The notes beneath the pieces are model-generated. The model was not told the origin of the DNA. It worked only from the letters and a program-made list of their open reading frames with translations, and did no database searches. A stretch of 50,984 nucleotides of DNA, from the NCBI GenBank assembly GCA_040222015.1, contig JAVJWO010000009.1:1-50984 (forward strand), read 5' to 3'. Both the position numbers and the translations under genes were made by a program. Source of the DNA: Coleofasciculus chthonoplastes F2-STO-03. GTDB lineage: Bacteria > Cyanobacteriota > Cyanobacteriia > Cyanobacteriales > Coleofasciculaceae. Shown piece by piece: positions 4,191 through 12,977 of the stretch. How positions within the stretch are numbered: position 1 is the first letter of the stretch; each line of letters opens with the position of its first letter.

Positions 4191-5822
4191 ATGTCTTTCG
4201 ATCAGCCATCTAACTCTCACCTAGAGGTAAACTCTTCTCACCCCACCCATATTACCGCATTAGAACAGGAACTCATTGAACTGCGACGCCAAGTCTCTCG
4301 ACAGACATTACTCAACCAAATTGTTCAAGCGATGCGCGGTACACTGGTGTTGGAAGATATTCTCCAAACCACGGTCGATCAACTCCATGAAACACTTAAT
4401 GTCAGTCGCTGTTTGATTTTTCGACCGGATGGTGAGTCGCAAATGACGGCAGATCATGTTTCGGAAGCGACCGCCCAACGGGAGAGTATTTTGGGGGTCT
4501 ACTGTGATTTTTATCGGTATCACCACCAGGAATTGAGCCAGGGTCAGCCTGTGGTTGTCCCGCAAATTACTCCCAATTTTCCCGATGTGTTAATCGAGGC
4601 GGCGCAGGAATGTGAAATCTGCGCTATTTTGATTGTGCCGTTGCTTTACCAAAATTCCTATATTGGCGGGATTAGTCTACACCAGTGTGATCAGGCACGG
4701 GAATGGAACCGAGAGGATATTGAGTTTGTCCAAGCCATTGCCGATCATTGTGCGATCGCGATTCATCAAGCCCAATTGTATGCTAAGTTACAACGTGAAT
4801 TAAGAGAACGTCACCAGGTAGAAGAAGCACTCCGGCAAAGTGAAACCCGCTTTCGCACGGCGCTGAAACATGCACCATTGGTGGTGTTTAATCAAGATCA
4901 GGAGTTACGCTACACTTGGGTTTATAATGCGGTTCCTGATAGCGAAGCGGATACTATCTTGGGAAAAACCGACAGCGAACTCCTAGCACCCCAGGAAGCG
5001 CAACGTTTAATCTCCATCAAGCAGCGTGTACTGACTAGTGGGGTAGGAGTGCGAGAGGAAGTCTCCCTCACCATTAATGGTGAACTTCGATACTACGATT
5101 TGACCGTCGAACCCTTACGCAACTCAATCGGAGACATAGAGGGAATTACCTGCGCGGCAATGGATATTAGCGATCGCAAACACATCGAGGATCAGCTTAA
5201 GATTTCCTTACAGCAAAAGGAAGTACTGTTCCAAGAAATTCACCATCGGGTCAAAAATAACCTACAACTTGTCTCTAGCCTGCTTGATCTCCAATCACAG
5301 CAAATTGATGACCCTGAGATTTTTTCCCTCTTTCAAGCCAGCCAGAACCGAATCAAATCAATGGCTCTTATCCATGAAGAACTCTATCAATTTGAACACT
5401 TGCAGCGGATTAATTTTCTCAATTATATTGAAAATCTTACCTATCATTTGATTCAAACCTATGCTATTCATCCCGAATCTATTAGCCTACACCTTAATAT
5501 AGACCAAGATTTAAATCTTGATCTAGCAACCGCTATTTATTGCGGATTAATTCTCAACGAGCTAATCTCTAACGCCTTAAAACATGCCTTTAAGTCAAAC
5601 AATTATAAAGGTCATATATGGATTGAGATTTATTCAAATAAAAAAGATAATTCAAAAAATAAATTGATTGTGGGCAATAACAAGCCAACACCACTTGAAT
5701 CGATCGACTTTAATTCACCCAAAAGCTTGGGCTTGCAATTAGTCCGCGCTTTAGTAGCACAGCTTAATGGCAAGCTGGAAATAAAGAAAGCTAATAATAC
5801 AGTCTTTGAAATTGAATTTTAA
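4191..5822 (+). CDS. GAF-PAS sensor histidine kinase, HisKA_2 type
   Basis: GAF (LHQCDQAREW), PAS (FNQDQELRYTW), H-box EIHHRVKNNLQ, N-box NELISNALKHAF. Confidence 0.93.
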   Translation: MSFDQPSNSHLEVNSSHPTHITALEQELIELRRQVSRQTLLNQIVQAMRGTLVLEDILQTTVDQLHETLNVSRCLIFRPDGESQMTADHVSEATAQRESILGVYCDFYRYHHQELSQGQPVVVPQITPNFPDVLIEAAQECEICAILIVPLLYQNSYIGGISLHQCDQAREWNREDIEFVQAIADHCAIAIHQAQLYAKLQRELRERHQVEEALRQSETRFRTALKHAPLVVFNQDQELRYTWVYNAVPDSEADTILGKTDSELLAPQEAQRLISIKQRVLTSGVGVREEVSLTINGELRYYDLTVEPLRNSIGDIEGITCAAMDISDRKHIEDQLKISLQQKEVLFQEIHHRVKNNLQLVSSLLDLQSQQIDDPEIFSLFQASQNRIKSMALIHEELYQFEHLQRINFLNYIENLTYHLIQTYAIHPESISLHLNIDQDLNLDLATAIYCGLILNELISNALKHAFKSNNYKGHIWIEIYSNKKDNSKNKLIVGNNKPTPLESIDFNSPKSLGLQLVRALVAQLNGKLEIKKANNTVFEIEF

Positions 5823-7083: not shown

Positions 7084-8028
7084 CTAGAGCCGTTGAAGAT
7101 TCTTCTGTAACTGTCGTTCTTGTCGCTGAAGTTGCTCGACCAATTCAATTTCTCGCAAACTACCGGGTTGAATATCCGTCGTTTCCCGGAGTTTTTGGGC
7201 AAGTTGATAACAAAATTGACATCGTTCTAAAATCTGGAGAATCGAAGGGGCAAACTTGGCAAATAGGACTTCATCATCTCGGGTAAAACCACGAGGATCA
7301 ATCTTCTTGACTAGATCATCTTGCGGTTGGTAGTTGGACTTTAATTTATTGATTAATTGCACCACCGCCACGAGATCTTGTTTGTCGTTTAGTAGGGGCC
7401 AAGCCAAAATGGTATAGGTGCGGTATCCGGTACGACGATCCGTCTTCTGCGCCATCTCGGAGCGCGGATCATCATAGACATCAAAGGGAATGTTAATCAC
7501 TTTTAAGGAAAAGGCGGCGAGACTAGCAATTCCTTTATTAGCCGGAATATCGATCAACAGACTACCACCGTCTCCATCCTCAGCAATCAGTGAACCCAAT
7601 TCTTGTCGTTCTTGATCCAATAAAAAAATACTGGTGCGATCCGCACGAAGCAAATTCCCGACTTTGCGGGTGAGGCGACCCAATAGTTGGCAGAGTGTTC
7701 TCACCAGTGTTTGTAACGCTTGGTCAACAGCACTCACCTCATGGCTGTAGGAGTAAGCCAGAAACTCACCCACTTCAATCGGTGAGTCAAAAACTAGATT
7801 CTGCTGGCTATCTAAACCAGCCACATCCTGCCAGTCCAATTCTAAGACTTGACAAAGTTCGACAAAGTTTAGTCCTTTAACGGGTTGTCCTTTGAGAAAG
7901 TGATTTAGGGTATCTAACGATAGTCCTAGGGCTTCCGCCAGTTCGCGATCGCGTCCATGACTCTTATCGCGCCAAGCTTGTTTGACTTTGGGAATGGACT
8001 GGGGATGCACACTAAATGACCGAATCAT
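7084..8028 (-). CDS. N-terminal Xre-like HTH fused to an adenylate-cyclase/PDE-type GAF domain
   Basis: LAEALGLSLDTLNHFLKGQPV...CQVLELDWQD HTH; GAF with QLINKL...FTRDDE (NKFDE motif). Start placed at MIRS; upstream alternative at 8088. Confidence 0.8.
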   Translation of the reverse strand: MIRSFSVHPQSIPKVKQAWRDKSHGRDRELAEALGLSLDTLNHFLKGQPVKGLNFVELCQVLELDWQDVAGLDSQQNLVFDSPIEVGEFLAYSYSHEVSAVDQALQTLVRTLCQLLGRLTRKVGNLLRADRTSIFLLDQERQELGSLIAEDGDGGSLLIDIPANKGIASLAAFSLKVINIPFDVYDDPRSEMAQKTDRRTGYRTYTILAWPLLNDKQDLVAVVQLINKLKSNYQPQDDLVKKIDPRGFTRDDEVLFAKFAPSILQILERCQFCYQLAQKLRETTDIQPGSLREIELVEQLQRQERQLQKNLQRL

Positions 8029-8360
8029 TGTTCTTCGTGGCGTTCCTCTCCCGTTCAATCCAAGATGATCATCGGAAAATAATGCCACGCCTCCATGTAG
8101 GTTTACAAATAGGTGACATAACCAAGTAAGCGACTGTGTTTATCGGTTACTTCGATTTAACCAGAGAAGCTTACAGGTACCCATCTGAACGGTTGGTCTG
8201 ATCCTAGATTAAAACGCTGTCTGTTCTTTTTACTACGATTTGTGTAAAATCTTTACGCTTCCAGCAAGGTAGCATATCAAGGAAAGCTTATGACTTGCCC
8301 AACTCTTGAAGAGCAATGCTGAAGTTAATAGCTATAGATACAAATTTTTTGCTATAATTC

Positions 8361-8376
8361 TGTAGTATTGGATACA
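8361..8376. promoter_or_regulatory. Candidate NtcA site
   Basis: TGTA-gtattgga-TACA matches GTA-N8-TAC; plus-strand TATAAT directly upstream (8353-8358). Confidence 0.4.
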
Positions 8377-8395
8377 CAAACAATACAAAAAAAAT

Positions 8396-8533
8396 ACAAA
8401 AAAAGACGCTGCTGTTTATTCAGTCCATTCAGCAACGCCCCAGCATTGAGTTTTCTAATCCTATCTATACAAATGGTATCTAACTGAGCAGAAACTGTTT
8501 GCAGTTCGTGTTCCACCCGTTTAACTGTCACAT
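8396..8533 (-). ncRNA. Candidate structured RNA, copy 1, ending in an intrinsic terminator
   Basis: Paralogue of 8745-8873; hairpin GAACTG-CAAA-CAGTTT; terminator GCGTTGCTG...CAGCAGCGT followed by a U-run. Confidence 0.6.
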
Positions 8534-8559
8534 CGATAGATTAGCCGTTCTACAACACT

Positions 8560-8700
8560 TGGACAACGCTAGACAACATTGGATATTGTTAGACATCATC
8601 CGGATTGCTTCCTGAATGTCCAATTCTGTCCAAAGATTTAGTTACAGTTATTTACCCCTTGTTTTGTCTAGGTTTGCCCACTTCTGGGTAGATTTGCCTA
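8560..8700. promoter_or_regulatory. 10-bp-phased array of TRGACA-like motifs in both orientations (candidate operator array)
   Basis: TGGACA 8560, TAGACA 8570, TGGATA 8580, TAGACA 8590; inverted TGTCCA 8617 and 8627; TGTCTA 8665, TGCCCA 8675, TGCCTA 8695. Confidence 0.5.
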
Positions 8701-8744
8701 GATTTTCGGATAACTCCTGATTTAATTTCTGTAATTTATGAAAC

Positions 8745-8873
8745 AAAAAACGCTGCTGTTATTCAGTCCATTCAGCAACGCTTCAATAATTGAGTTTTCT
8801 AATCCTGGATATATCCTAACCAAGTCAAGTCGGACTGTTTGCAATCCGCATTCCACCCTTTGAAGTGTCACAT
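8745..8873 (-). ncRNA. Candidate structured RNA, copy 2, ending in an intrinsic terminator
   Basis: Hairpin CGGATTG-CAAA-CAGTCCG; conserved AGGATTAGAAAACTCAAT block; same terminator. Confidence 0.6.
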
Positions 8874-8909
8874 TAGCTAATTTTGGATAACGGAAAATAG
8901 GTTATAAAG

Positions 8910-11900
8910 TTAGCTTATTGTCCTATCATCCATCAAGTTCGGATCACTCCCCGCTTCAATCGCCCCTTCTGCTTGCAGAGCGATCGCTCTTAATTTCTCC
9001 AGTATCTCAGGTTTAGCCGATTGCCACAGCGATCGCTGATGCGCCTCCAGTAAGCGTTCTGCCATATCTCGCATCGCCCAGGGATTCTTTTGCTGGATAA
9101 ACTCTTGCACCTGTTCATCCAACAAATAAGCCTCCGTCACCCCTTGATACATATAATCTGCCACACAATTGGCTGTCGCATCATAGGCAAACAAATAATC
9201 CACCGTCGCCGCCATTTCAAACGCCCCTTTATAGCCGTGGCGCATTACCCCTTCAATCCATTTGGGATTCACCACACGAGAACGATAAACGCGGGCAATT
9301 TCCTCCTGTAGCCGCCGCACCTTGGGGTTTTCGGGAATTGAATTATCGCCAAAATAGGTTTGCGGATTCTTACCCGTCAGCGCCCGCACCGATGCAGTTA
9401 ATCCCCCTTGAAACTGATAATAATCATCAGAATCGAGTAAATCATGTTCTCGATTATCCTGATTATGTAAAACGACTTGCAATTGTTTGAGCCGTTGTGC
9501 AAAGGCTTCCGGCGCAGCAACCCCCTCCTGATTCTGGGAAAATGTACCACAGTACGCATAACTACTCCAATTCATATACGCCCGCGCCAAATCCTGTTCA
9601 TCCCGCCAATTTTGCGCCTCAATCAATCCCTGTAACCCCGCGCCATAGGCTCCCGGTTTCGAGCCAAATATCCGATAGTGCGATCGCGCCTCGGCTTCCT
9701 CTTCACTCAATCCCGCTTCACACCAGAACGCTGTCTCCTGTTTCACTTGCGTCGCCAAGGGATTGTCCTCCGGGGATTCATTCAAAGCGGCAACAGCGAC
9801 CACGGCATTGTAAAATAAATCAATTAAATTAGGGAAAGCATCGCGAAAAAAGCCCGAAATCCGCAGCGTCACATCCACACGCGGACGCCCTAACACCGAC
9901 AGGGGCAGAATTTCAAAATCCACCACCCGACGTGACGGGCGATCCCAAATTGGTTGCACCCCCAACAACGCCAGCGCTTGCGCCAGATCATCGCCCCCAG
10001 TTCTCATTGCTGACGTTCCCCATACGGATAATGCCAGTGTTTTGGGATACTCCCCATTATCCTGGGTATAGCGTTCAATCACCGCTTCCGCCGCCTTGCG
10101 TCCCACATCCCACGCCGTTTCTGTGGGAATCGCACGGATATCAACGGAGTAAAAATTGCGCCCTGTGGGTAATACCTCCGGGCGTCCCCTCGTCGGCGCA
10201 CCCGCCGCCCCACTCTCGACATAGCGCCCCTCTAATCCCTGCAACAGATGGGTGATTTCTTGGCAGGTTTGGGTTAAGGCGGGTAAAAGGCGATCGCGAA
10301 TCCAGTCTAATTCCTGTTGCGTTCGTTGTCCGATTCGGGAATTAAGTGTAGAGACGTGCCATGGCGCGTCTGTAGGGGCGGGTTTAGGAACATTCTTGTC
10401 GCTATTGGTTGTAACATTTGTGCAAAACCCGCCCTGACTAAGTGTTGACCCTTCGCCGCCTTCATTGCCATGGTTTTGATCCTTTCCTTCTACCTTTGAT
10501 ATCAGGGATTCCACCAATTCCGCAGCTTGGGCTTCCAATTGCGCGATCGCTTGTCTCTTCTTGTCGCCTTCTAGAGTCAGTGGATCAAAGTCCCATCCCC
10601 AATCTTGCGCGATCGCACGAGTTAACCCCAAACGCCCCTTCCCCGGATGACGGGCAATTGCCACAGTTAAGTCTCGCAATAGTCGCCCCTGAGGACACTG
10701 TCCTAATATATGTAACCCATCCCGAATTTGAGCTTCTTTTAATTCACACAGGTAGCTATCGACTTGAGTTAAAAGATTCGCTTTTCCTGCTTCCCCTAGA
10801 AGGGCGGGTTTAGTCAAGCTATTCGACATCGACAGAACGTTATCGGTAAAACCCGCCCCTACAGCCTCTGCTTCTAGACGTTCCACCCCATCCTCAAATC
10901 CCAAATCGTGGTGCAGGTTTTCTTGGATAACCAGTTGAGTAATGCGATCGCGGATAATCGGTAGGCGAGAGGGATCTAAGCTTTGCGCTTCGTAATATTC
11001 ATCCACTAACCCTTCAAGCTGTTGCAAAGCATCATAGAGTTCAGCGCGAGTCATCGGTGGCGTCAGGTGGTCAATAATCACAGCCTGCGATCGCCGTTTC
11101 GCTTGAGACCCTTCCCCTGGATCATTGACAATGAAGGGGTATAAATGGGGCATTGTCCCTAAGGCGACTTCTGGATAACAGGTTTCAGAGAGTGCCAAAC
11201 TTTTCCCCGGTAACCATTCCAAATTTCCATGTTTTCCCAGATGTACTACCGCATGCGCCCCGAATTTCTGTCGCAGCCAATAATAAAAGGCTAAATAAGC
11301 TGGTGTTGGTTCTAAATCCGGCGCGTGATAATTTAATCCTGGGTCAATATCATAACCCCGCGACGGTTGAATCCCGACAAAAATATTACCCAGTTGGATT
11401 CCCGGAATGGGAATTGTTGATTGCTGATTGTTGATTGTTGATCGTGTAGGGGCGGGTTTAGGAACTTCCTTGTCGCTATTGGTAATAATATTTGTGCCAA
11501 ACCCGCCCTGACTGAGTATTAACTCTTCGCTTTCTTTATCCCAACGGTTACAGATGCCTTGTTGTACCGTTAAAGGTAACGTATCAAAATAATCGTGATA
11601 CTCTTGCCCAGATAACCCCTGTTGTACAGGACGTAATTCCCATCCTTCGGGGTCATTGGTTACCCCCGTGATTAAGCGCTGGATCAGTTCATCTCCGGTT
11701 TCGGGACTATCCTCTACCTGATACCCCGCCCCTTGCAACGCCTTGAGCATTTCCACACAGCTTGCCGGCGTATCAAGCCCCACACCATTAGCGAGGCGTC
11801 CATCTCGGTTAGGATAATTAGCTAAGATCAGGGCAATACGCCGTTCTGCTGGCGGAGTTTGGCGCAATTTTACCCAATTCGCGGCTAACTGAGTGACAAA

Positions 11901-12977
11901 ATTAATGCGATCGCGCACCGATTCATAAACCACGACATCCGTTTCCAGCAGCGGATTCCAGGTTTGTACTGCCTTGAATGAAACCGCACGAGTAATAATG
12001 CGTCCATCCACTTCTGGCAAGGCGACATTCATTGCTGTATCTCTTGGAGTTAATCCCTGAAATTGTTCCTGCCATTGTTCCTTTGTCCCGCCACTAAAAA
12101 TGACTTGCAGTACAGGTACATCCAAACGTTTCCATAACTCCAACCCAGGTTGTTCATTATCTATTAATTTAGCAACAGAGAAACTTGTTGTATTCAGTAA
12201 CACCTCAATTTTCGCATCATCTTTGGGTTGGAAATAGGATAATACTTCCGCCTGTACCTCCGGATCACGTAACGACGAGACAAATACTGGCACAGGATGC
12301 AACTGTTGTGCAACTAACGCTTGACAAAGTGCATCAATTGGTGATGTATTTCCTGCCAAATAATGAGCGCGATAAAACAGAATCCCCACTTTAGAGTTCG
12401 TAGTAAGCGCTTTAGCGCTTCCGTCTCCCCACCCATAAATCCCCACACGCGGTACAGGTTTAGGAGGTAGAGGCTCATAAGTTCTTCCCAAACACAAATC
12501 AGCAACAAATTTCAGAGCGTTGGTGCAATTCTCCACACCCCCTTCAATAAAATAACGCCATAGCTGATGAACGGCAGTTAGAGGAATAGTAGAATGACTA
12601 ACTAAATTGGGATCTGGACGATCATCTCCTGGCAATAGGATTAAGTTTGCCCCTGTTTGTTCTACAGTTGTCTGCACTACTTCCAATCCATAAGACCAGT
12701 AGGCAGATCCACCCAAAAGCCGGATAATAATAACGTCTGCCTGTTCTAAAACCTGTTCGGTGTAGGTGTCAATCGTTAATTCCTGCTGCAATTGTAGAAG
12801 ATTAACGGCTCGAATTGCGGGGAAATCTTGGGGTAAATGAGCCATTGACGCCGCCAAGGTTTGAATATCGGTGTCGGCGGCTGTAATCAAAACGATTGGC
12901 GCAGGTGTCTGTTCAATAAAAATAACCCCTTCAGCTTGTGGATTCCATCCTCCCGGTGTCGCAGCAATCCGATGCAT
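8910..12977 (-). CDS. cobN: Cobaltochelatase subunit CobN, with in-frame repeat-derived insertions
   Basis: MHRIAATPGG start, GKHGNLEWLPGK, LPTGRNFY, RPRVDVTLRISGFFRDAFP, HDLLDSDDYYQFQGG. Confidence 0.97.
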   Translation of the reverse strand: MHRIAATPGGWNPQAEGVIFIEQTPAPIVLITAADTDIQTLAASMAHLPQDFPAIRAVNLLQLQQELTIDTYTEQVLEQADVIIIRLLGGSAYWSYGLEVVQTTVEQTGANLILLPGDDRPDPNLVSHSTIPLTAVHQLWRYFIEGGVENCTNALKFVADLCLGRTYEPLPPKPVPRVGIYGWGDGSAKALTTNSKVGILFYRAHYLAGNTSPIDALCQALVAQQLHPVPVFVSSLRDPEVQAEVLSYFQPKDDAKIEVLLNTTSFSVAKLIDNEQPGLELWKRLDVPVLQVIFSGGTKEQWQEQFQGLTPRDTAMNVALPEVDGRIITRAVSFKAVQTWNPLLETDVVVYESVRDRINFVTQLAANWVKLRQTPPAERRIALILANYPNRDGRLANGVGLDTPASCVEMLKALQGAGYQVEDSPETGDELIQRLITGVTNDPEGWELRPVQQGLSGQEYHDYFDTLPLTVQQGICNRWDKESEELILSQGGFGTNIITNSDKEVPKPAPTRSTINNQQSTIPIPGIQLGNIFVGIQPSRGYDIDPGLNYHAPDLEPTPAYLAFYYWLRQKFGAHAVVHLGKHGNLEWLPGKSLALSETCYPEVALGTMPHLYPFIVNDPGEGSQAKRRSQAVIIDHLTPPMTRAELYDALQQLEGLVDEYYEAQSLDPSRLPIIRDRITQLVIQENLHHDLGFEDGVERLEAEAVGAGFTDNVLSMSNSLTKPALLGEAGKANLLTQVDSYLCELKEAQIRDGLHILGQCPQGRLLRDLTVAIARHPGKGRLGLTRAIAQDWGWDFDPLTLEGDKKRQAIAQLEAQAAELVESLISKVEGKDQNHGNEGGEGSTLSQGGFCTNVTTNSDKNVPKPAPTDAPWHVSTLNSRIGQRTQQELDWIRDRLLPALTQTCQEITHLLQGLEGRYVESGAAGAPTRGRPEVLPTGRNFYSVDIRAIPTETAWDVGRKAAEAVIERYTQDNGEYPKTLALSVWGTSAMRTGGDDLAQALALLGVQPIWDRPSRRVVDFEILPLSVLGRPRVDVTLRISGFFRDAFPNLIDLFYNAVVAVAALNESPEDNPLATQVKQETAFWCEAGLSEEEAEARSHYRIFGSKPGAYGAGLQGLIEAQNWRDEQDLARAYMNWSSYAYCGTFSQNQEGVAAPEAFAQRLKQLQVVLHNQDNREHDLLDSDDYYQFQGGLTASVRALTGKNPQTYFGDNSIPENPKVRRLQEEIARVYRSRVVNPKWIEGVMRHGYKGAFEMAATVDYLFAYDATANCVADYMYQGVTEAYLLDEQVQEFIQQKNPWAMRDMAERLLEAHQRSLWQSAKPEILEKLRAIALQAEGAIEAGSDPNLMDDRTIS
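10348..10440. repeat. Two abutting GTAG-REP elements in frame within cobN
   Basis: GTAGAGACGTGCCATGGCGCGTC (also at 50139) followed by GTAGGGGCGGGTTT...AAACCCGCCC. Confidence 0.85.
10802..10863. repeat. GTAG-REP element in frame within cobN, opposite orientation
   Basis: GGGCGGGTTT...AAACCCGCCCCTAC. Confidence 0.85.
11413..11512. repeat. Heptamer run (TTGTTGA)x4 plus GTAG-REP element in frame within cobN
   Basis: Seen directly; REP is a close relative of 10372-10434. Confidence 0.85.

Follow-up and report, generated by a model that had tools for sequence, protein, structure and literature searches.

Adjacent sibling small RNAs (sRNAs) are represented by OmrA/OmrB of enterobacteria and by PrrF1/PrrF2, and in Listeria, sibling sRNAs of the LhrC type repress LapB, an adhesin anchored by sortase. 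PsbA2R of Synechocystis is a cis-antisense RNA over a 5' leader, and RNAs of the PsbA2R type protect their mRNA; DapZ and MicL are sRNAs of 3' regions with an internal promoter. Here, we analyzed a stretch of 50,984 nucleotides from Coleofasciculus chthonoplastes F2-STO-03 (assembly GCA_040222015.1, contig JAVJWO010000009.1, positions 1 to 50,984; hereafter the window). Coleofasciculus is a main builder of marine and hypersaline microbial mats. Two paralogous copies, A (8873..8742) and B (8533..8398), lie as direct repeats on the minus strand of the window. As judged from the sequence, they belong to a real, undescribed family of predicted sRNAs with a specific, testable target hypothesis.

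Like OmrA/OmrB and PrrF1/PrrF2, copies A and B are adjacent paralogues with a conserved 5' seed and terminator, a divergent middle and a common sequence upstream of the putative promoter, and, as with OmrA/OmrB, the (predicted) targets encode envelope or surface proteins. They differ from both pairs in their cyanobacterial host and in having neither a sequence relation to them nor an Rfam match. The likeness to LhrC lies in a multicopy, partly tandem family and in targets, here predicted, that are handled by a C-terminal sorting system, although the phylum is another one, the sorting system is exosortase/PEP-CTERM instead of sortase/LPXTG, and a single 5' seed is present instead of CU-rich loops. 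As in the case of PsbA2R, the sRNA genes of four other genomes (G014, G024, G026 and G029) overlap an opposite-strand mRNA leader, in contrast to the free-standing window copies A and B, which could act only in trans. The NsiR1 array of Nostoc is similar in its tandem sRNA genes, in its filamentous cyanobacterial host and in the promoter (here putative) and terminator of each gene; it has no sequence or Rfam relation to the present copies, which come from a non-heterocystous host, number two to three instead of about 12, and lie in another genomic context. Copy A resembles DapZ and MicL in that it is found in the untranslated tail of cobN, shares a terminator with that gene and has a -10-like box of its own, but only copy A fits this type and its promoter is deduced from sequence alone. 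None of the systems compared here is related to A and B by sequence or through Rfam.

A literature search revealed nothing on RNA regulation of PEP-CTERM or exosortase substrates in cyanobacteria. The titles and abstract openings of the cyanoexosortase papers listed mention no sRNA, and no sRNA was reported for Coleofasciculus as far as the titles and abstract openings of its listed transcriptome papers tell; papers that came up on small RNAs in this genus were unrelated. The main text of a 2026 paper on RNA structures in 202 cyanobacterial genomes does not contain the terms PEP-CTERM, Coleofasciculus, exosortase, cobN or Microcoleus, and its supplements could list the motif under another name.

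We place at roughly one half the probability that A and B are sibling trans-acting sRNAs that descended from a cis-antisense RNA and pair with the leaders of PEP-CTERM mRNAs. In the fullest form of this reading, which has less than even odds (see below), the siblings would be the first regulator known to act post-transcriptionally on the PEP-CTERM/exosortase system, and an example of cis-to-trans sRNA evolution caught in the act in mat-building cyanobacteria. A target prediction that holds would show the tuning of surface or sheath proteins and supply an instance of trans-acting siblings with a cis-antisense origin; one that fails would still leave a clean new sRNA family for Rfam, from 15 genomes and 7 genera.

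Anatomy, strand and relatives of the two copies

A repeat search revealed four co-linear blocks in the two copies, with an offset of 340-344 nt between A and B, and their pairwise alignment had a mean column identity of 84% over 167 columns. Both copies contain the block ATGTGACA (8873..8866 in A and 8533..8526 in B), the block GGGTGGAA (8858..8851 and 8518..8511), a short inverted repeat around CAAA, and the invariant block AGGATTAGAAAACTCAAT (8806..8789 and 8462..8445), which we refer to as the seed. Each copy is closed by a hairpin and a T-run, and the hairpin loop AATGGACTGAAT is identical in A and B. As evident from these results, the original prediction of twin minus-strand paralogues with common blocks, an invariant block and a terminator with a conserved loop was borne out by both the alignment and the repeat search. 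The proposed short form of sRNA A is 62 nt long (8745..8806, minus strand) and consists of the 18-nt seed, a spacer, the terminator hairpin and a T-run at 8750..8745. In sRNA B (8398..8462, minus strand), the seed and terminator are followed by a T-run at 8404..8398, and the 5' end possibly extends up to about 8470.

The consensus terminator hairpin contains 11 pairs, with G-U or U-G at five positions and compensatory changes at two, and T-runs follow the hairpin in the family members. Upon folding of the hairpin on both strands, the sRNA strand was more stable in 13 of 14 members (-14.7 vs -6.7 for A and -21.9 vs -10.5 for the member in G026), the exception being G024a; the strand that had been fixed from G-U pairs and the U-run was thereby confirmed. 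The short form of A folds into a 12-bp stem of -14.7 kcal/mol and leaves positions 1-22 unpaired. In the folds of B and C, a third copy described below, part of the seed is weakly paired to the spacer.

A covariance model of the seed plus terminator (R1; 63 positions, 11 pairs) scored 87.4 bits at copy A (E 4e-18) and 81.3 bits at 8401-8462 of copy B (E 1.4e-16). At E <= 0.01, R1 matched 17 of the 52 genomes and 9 of the 24 genera of the family to which Coleofasciculus belongs; the matches were strong (E < 1e-7) in 15 genomes from 7 genera, and only weak and unconvincing (E about 3e-3) in two. The 144 genomes searched from 37 other families of the order gave a single match (G085, E 5e-4), which was rejected as a family member because it falls within a kinase-like coding sequence. 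Among the genomes searched, the sRNA family thus appears to be restricted to the family of Coleofasciculus.

When 61 relatives were searched with BLAST, the tandem pair was recovered in the genus, and each genome had, at another place, a shorter match confined to seed and terminator; a few other genera also had such a match. Copies A and B are present in eight of the nine genomes of the genus, on two short contigs in G006, and were not found in G004 (99% complete, 620 contigs). The third copy, C, is present in all nine genomes and lies at C23:1619-1682 in the genome that holds the window. There are 3-5 copies per genome, and their arrangement varies: G005 has three tandem copies (C197:17214-17640), and G008 has an A-B-C array (C36:70840-71455) in which C directly follows B. 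Wherever A, B and C copies occur in the genus genomes, their seed is identical except for U/C at position 5. A 17-mer pattern scan of public genome contigs gave at least 119 stretches; most of the 80 matches listed were chance occurrences in unrelated phyla, and five were Coleofasciculus loci. The matches listed in Nostoc (3), Heteroscytonema, Chlorogloeopsis and Prochlorococcus were rejected, as they lie in coding-like sequence and have no terminator.

Two open reading frames (ORFs) that start at a common GTG overlap the copies (8352..8531 and 8722..8871). Their amino-acid identity is just 38%, compared with a DNA column identity of 84%, they read the invariant block in different frames (DRIRKLN vs PGLENSI), and a Pfam search of both gave no match. 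A small protein gene was rejected on these grounds, and the earlier argument against a peptide, which was based on the differing frames, holds. A covariance-model search of the whole window against Rfam 15 gave no match at the gathering thresholds. At E <= 10, the region 8000-9000 gave three chance-level matches only (E 4.3-9.3), to eukaryotic snoRNA-type or unrelated families, and no relevant match was found at copy C or at the D/D2 locus discussed below. The genome that holds the window (7.72 Mb, 219 contigs) contains A and B as its two full copies, together with a diverged third and a weak fourth one, so the element is not a high-copy repeat. As conserved, strand-specific, non-coding and terminator-bearing paralogues that match no Rfam family, the two copies continue to fit the proposal that they are undescribed sibling sRNAs.

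Putative transcription start and the 5' half

The similarity of A/B, C and the members from other genera begins exactly at AGGAYTAG, and the preceding 6 nt are unalike. Upstream of the seed, a TAnnnT hexamer that resembles the -10 consensus occupies -12..-7 in nearly all members. The hexamer is TAGGAT in A (8813..8818, minus strand, 6 nt upstream of the first seed A), TAGAAT in G016 and G070, TAAAAT in G026, G029a, G029b and G024a, TATAAT in G014 and TATGCT in G024b; copy C has TATAAT after TGT at -13..-8. The TAGGAT of A is kept in all eight genus copies. We infer that the homology boundary and the hexamer together are the signature of a transcription start at the first seed A, with the hexamer as a putative promoter element. 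The RNA is more likely to be about 62 nt long, because the homology begins at AGGAYTAG directly after the -10-like hexamer. Copy B probably starts a few nucleotides further upstream, and its candidate -10 hexamers are TAGATA (8482..8477) and TACCAT (8478..8473). Upstream of ATGTGACA, neither a promoter-like sequence common to A and B nor a conserved TAnnnT was found.

The original prediction had described each copy as a structured RNA of about 130 nt with a CAAA-loop hairpin that showed pairing-preserving changes. We regard as doubtful the corresponding model, in which each sRNA would start near ATGTGACA and carry a two-hairpin 5' domain, for example for protein binding or seed masking. The conserved upstream regions of A (8819..8873) and B (8463..8533) contain ATGTGACA, GGGTGGAA and an inverted repeat, which is imperfect in A (8848..8831) and lies at 8507..8492 in B. 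In favor of the longer RNA, none of the 19 A/B-type sequences, those of G016 and G070 included, shows a change in TGTGACA or G(G)TGGAA, and the distance of these blocks to the seed is constant within about 2 nt in A-type copies; moreover, in this genome the homology of B with its relatives begins at TGTGACA though the sequence upstream is replaced, and the fold of A has a third hairpin that can occlude the beginning of the seed. This third hairpin is absent from B, however, and the predicted covariation was not observed. In the alignment of the 19 A/B-type sequences (A3; the genus and two other genera), 81.1% of the cells of the two proposed 5' helices pair, compared with 80.7% in 500 column shuffles, of which 238 were as high, and the covariation score of the 5' half was 0.199 versus 0.193, with 180 of 500 shuffles as high. 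Of the 19 sequences, 11 and 9, respectively, break the outer two pairs of the CAAA hairpin, and 12 break one pair of the first helix. Slid controls paired less (31-50%), the expected outcome for a structure taken from one member of the alignment. The 138-141-nt forms showed no fold excess over dinucleotide shuffles (z = -1.85 for A and -0.23 for B), and copy C and six loci from other genera lack the TGTGACA/GGTGGAA 5' half yet keep the seed, terminator and -10 box. Taken together with a homology that begins only at AGGAYTAG, these results indicate that the structure and length given in the original prediction are probably wrong.

If transcription starts at the seed, TGTGACA and GGTGGAA fall at about -67..-45, and the 5' half would be promoter-upstream DNA, presumably the site of a transcription factor. 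A genome-wide regular-expression search with the strict TGTGACA..GGTGGAA motif matched only A and B. A regulon of this element was considered and rejected, as looser matches led to an unrelated repeat that resembles a miniature inverted-repeat transposable element (MITE). The MITE-like repeat is present on contigs C69, C112, C125 and C215 of the same genome and has terminal inverted repeats (..GTGGCGTGACAC.. and ..GGTGTGCCACGCC..) together with a GC-rich hairpin in its interior. The likeness between its GTGACAC-N10-GTGGAAT and the upstream blocks of A is probably coincidental.

Another explanation, which we consider improbable, is that copy A is only processed from the 3' untranslated region (3' UTR) of the cobN mRNA and that its 5' blocks are determinants of processing or stability. 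Copy A lies 36 nt past the cobN stop (8910) and no terminator is found between the stop and the terminator of A, so the 5' half of A would also be transcribed as cobN 3' UTR. Consistent with processing, tblastn placed the 3' end of cobN next to the sRNA in the genus as well as in G016, G070 and G029. On the other hand, B, C and the head-to-head copies of other genera follow a terminator or lie elsewhere with the same module and -10 box, and the hexamer of A is conserved throughout the genus copies. Processing would also be compatible with trans-acting sibling sRNAs, as an additional source of A.

PEP-CTERM mRNA leaders as predicted targets

In all six loci found in G014, G024 (a and b), G026 and G029 (a and b), which represent four genera, an opposite-strand ATG is located 17-18 nt from the first base of the sRNA and opens an ORF with a signal-peptide-like start. 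Two of these head-to-head ORFs encode complete PEP-CTERM proteins of 224 and 250 aa (TIGR02595, 18.1 and 27.2 bits, respectively; cut-off 16). Two others run off their contigs after at least 231 and at least 237 aa, one with a sub-threshold PEP-cistern match and the other with none, and the remaining two are short (69 and 40 aa). Because the sRNA starts 17-18 nt from the opposite-strand start codon, it must overlap the mRNA leader at these loci. This cis-antisense geometry was found in the six loci and not for A and B, which have no opposite-strand gene.

At up to 4 mismatches, the seed's reverse complement occurs at 161 sites in the genome that holds the window. Among the best sites outside the sRNA genes, two with 2-3 mismatches on contig C117 stand directly before the AAGGAG-N7/8-ATG of tandem genes. 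These genes encode the PEP-CTERM proteins D (196 aa; L182 4383-4973, minus strand) and D2 (217 aa; L182 6715-7368, minus strand), which matched TIGR04155 cyano_PEP with 55.6 and 54.4 bits, respectively (cut-off 21.6), and adjoin an HpsJ-like gene and a cyanoexosortase A gene (328.5 bits, cut-off 150). The seed-complementary 18-mer occupies -32..-15 relative to the PEP-CTERM start codons and abuts the Shine-Dalgarno sequence. D2 shares 45% and 41% identity with the head-to-head proteins of G014 and G024b, respectively.

The leader 18-mers are kept across the genus while their flanks change. The D2 18-mer was found in six genomes and is the same in all of them, although the Shine-Dalgarno AAGGAG has become AAACAG in three genomes and AAAAAG in G008. 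Most of the 18-mers read ..CTAGTCCT, which is a perfect match to the AGGACUAG variant of copy C. When the first 25 nt of A, B and C were paired with the D and D2 leaders, the predicted duplexes had energies of -15.3 to -28.1 kcal/mol, and 0-2 of 300 shuffled seeds reached the observed energy. Among the 59 PEP-CTERM genes of the genome, D and D2 alone pair strongly (-22.7 and -21.9), with the next gene at -16.8 and a median of -9.6. The D leader is itself a weak R1 match on the opposite strand (E 4e-4), which is present in eight of nine genus genomes and has no -10 box; we read it as a likely relic of a head-to-head copy.

A target scan that tolerated G-U pairs without gaps was set aside as not discriminating, since it gave 873 sites with at least 15 of 18 pairs, compared with 347-873 for eight shuffled seeds. 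The seed complement was also observed, with 0-3 mismatches, inside the coding motif ..GDSYIAAIEFS[ND]P.. of an acylase-like gene, namely at C120 (minus strand) of the genome that holds the window, L215 (G016), L222 (G070), L224 (G024), L213 (G014), L039 and L050. The same site occurs outside the family in Heteroscytonema and Chlorogloeopsis, where no sRNA-like match was found. Either a conserved peptide resembles the site by accident, or the gene contains a second target within its coding region.

In the proposed mechanism, each gene would give rise to a short RNA of about 62 nt (A) or perhaps about 65-70 nt (B) that begins at or just before AGGAUUAGAAAACUCAAU and consists of a single-stranded 18-nt 5' seed, a variable spacer of 5-8 nt and an intrinsic terminator. 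The proposed 5' end of the short form is the A of AGGAUUAG, or a few nucleotides upstream of it for B. The promoter would combine the -10 box with an upstream activator or repressor site, and transcription would end at the hairpin. The free 5' end would anneal to the 18-nt site immediately upstream of the ribosome-binding site in PEP-CTERM mRNAs, here those of D and D2, through two 8-bp helices around an internal mismatch of 1-2 nt, and would alter ribosome access or RNase sensitivity. Repression is the commoner outcome, but activation is conceivable as well, since the Shine-Dalgarno AGGA could base-pair with the terminal UCCU of the site. The family probably arose from a cis-antisense RNA that is still encoded head-to-head in other genera and overlaps the leaders there. 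In its fullest form, which we put forward tentatively as a possible scenario with the odds against it, an escaped cis-antisense RNA became the free-standing siblings A, B and C, with A behind cobN in at least four genera, and these control exosortase substrates in trans via the 5' 18-nt seed and are driven by a regulator at TGTGACA-N9-GGTGGAA.

Several observations weigh against trans-acting siblings with these targets. The duplex energy is not unique, as one of 600 background start regions reached -22.8, and the complementarity of the D leader could be explained by descent alone because D is itself a weak R1 match. In G016 and G070, despite their cobN-linked sRNA, neither a D-like leader site (18-mer pattern, <= 2 mismatches) nor cyanoexosortase A was found, and tblastn with the D2 protein gave nothing at E <= 1e-5 in these genomes or in G026. 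Cyanoexosortase A is present in 12 of 15 sRNA-positive and 19 of 37 sRNA-negative genomes, which is a weak association among non-independent relatives. With respect to the promoter, TAnnnT at -12..-7 is missing from B because 8 nt (..ATTTGTATAGAT) have been inserted between the seed and the ancestral site of the -10 hexamer, and a sigma-70 scan, which requires a -35 element, called no promoter at either proposed start. A terminator scan did not call the A and B hairpins because their loops are 14-15 nt long. The strongly conserved TGTGACA and GGTGGAA blocks have no assigned binding protein and may have a role in RNA. Of the public RNA data, 13 metatranscriptome runs contained 4-15% of the sampled words and four of these, all consisting of contigs, were aligned to the locus; the contigs from the RNA library of a relative have about the depth of the flanking genes at the sRNA locus, and contigs cannot show ends, strand or level.

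The 18-mer could instead be an orientation-independent DNA operator of these loci and of PEP-CTERM promoters, with ordinary terminators and no trans-acting RNA. It is found in both orientations near predicted starts (sRNA genes, +1..+18; PEP-CTERM genes, -32..-15 relative to the start codon), which would agree with such an operator; we nevertheless assign this reading only a slim chance: the 18-mer is not palindromic, a strand-specific hairpin and T-run always follow it at a fixed short distance, and the free-standing copies lie between convergent or co-directional genes with nothing in cis to regulate. The original prediction had also offered tandem transcription attenuators, or a leader, of the downstream gene with helix-turn-helix (HTH) and GAF domains. 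That gene is on the same strand, its start is about 310 nt downstream of the B terminator, and it is adjacent in the five genus loci examined. The module, however, recurs away from any GAF gene in C, in G016, G070 and the head-to-head loci, and C follows B in G008; no alternative anti-terminator pairing or covarying aptamer-like fold was found, and the conserved neighbor is cobN. Attenuation is accordingly very unlikely. We give hardly any weight to a mobile or miniature repeat element. The copy number does vary, as seen in G005, G008 and G004, but with just 3-5 copies per genome, no inverted repeats found in 8000-9400 and cobN synteny across genera, the copies do not behave as such an element.

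Neighboring genes and the spacer

The upstream neighbor cobN (8910..12977, minus strand) encodes a cobaltochelatase subunit of 1355 aa (TIGR02257, 1640.5 bits, cut-off 822; Pfam CobN-Mg_chel). The downstream neighbor (7084..8088, minus strand) encodes a GAF-domain protein of 334 aa (Pfam GAF, E 1e-6) with an N-terminal region that is HTH-like by eye; this gene is not adjacent in the loci of other genera. Copy C lies between a VWA gene and an NAD-binding gene. A sensor kinase gene with GAF-PAS-HisKA_2-HATPase architecture is located at 4191-5822 of the window (plus strand), opposite in strand to the GAF gene and about 1.3 kb past it. A CbiX cobaltochelatase gene with a histidine-rich tail was found about 2 kb from D (L182 1272-2521, corresponding to C117:45271-46520), and a sub-threshold match to the cobalamin riboswitch precedes it (26.1 bits, gathering 31.5). 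Cobalt/B12 genes are thus present near both the sRNA pair (cobN) and the D locus (CbiX), possibly by chance.

The spacer between A and B (8534..8725) is specific to this genome and contains a 72-nt repeat. In a relative, RNA-library contigs join 8532 to 8726 with 34 other letters between them, and the start-to-start distance from A to B of about 185 nt in most genus genomes fits this 34-nt spacer. The sole minus-strand sigma-70-like site in 7900-9100 (8622..8595, TGGACA-16-GATGAT) sits within the inserted spacer and points towards copy B, so that a longer transcript could run into B in this genome only. The 72-nt repeat recurs at C108:39601-39671 and C105:21849-21922 of the same genome with 93-94% identity, ahead of genes and preceded by a longer common sequence. 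RNA-library contigs matching 8545-8658 had a summed depth of up to about 4,600-5,300, far above that of neighboring contigs, and no Rfam match; this region may be a leader or an sRNA in its own right.

A further site at C30:67730-67749 (about 1501-1520 of L003) matches copy B on the sense strand over 20 identical nt, 6 of which precede the seed. The site recurs in G001, G003, G005 and G006, is intergenic, and lies about 320 nt upstream of an opposite-strand adenylation gene of the non-ribosomal peptide synthetase type. A CAAAAT hexamer is located just upstream of the site, and a weak hairpin with a T-run is found about 60 nt downstream; the site may be a diverged fifth copy or a B-specific site.

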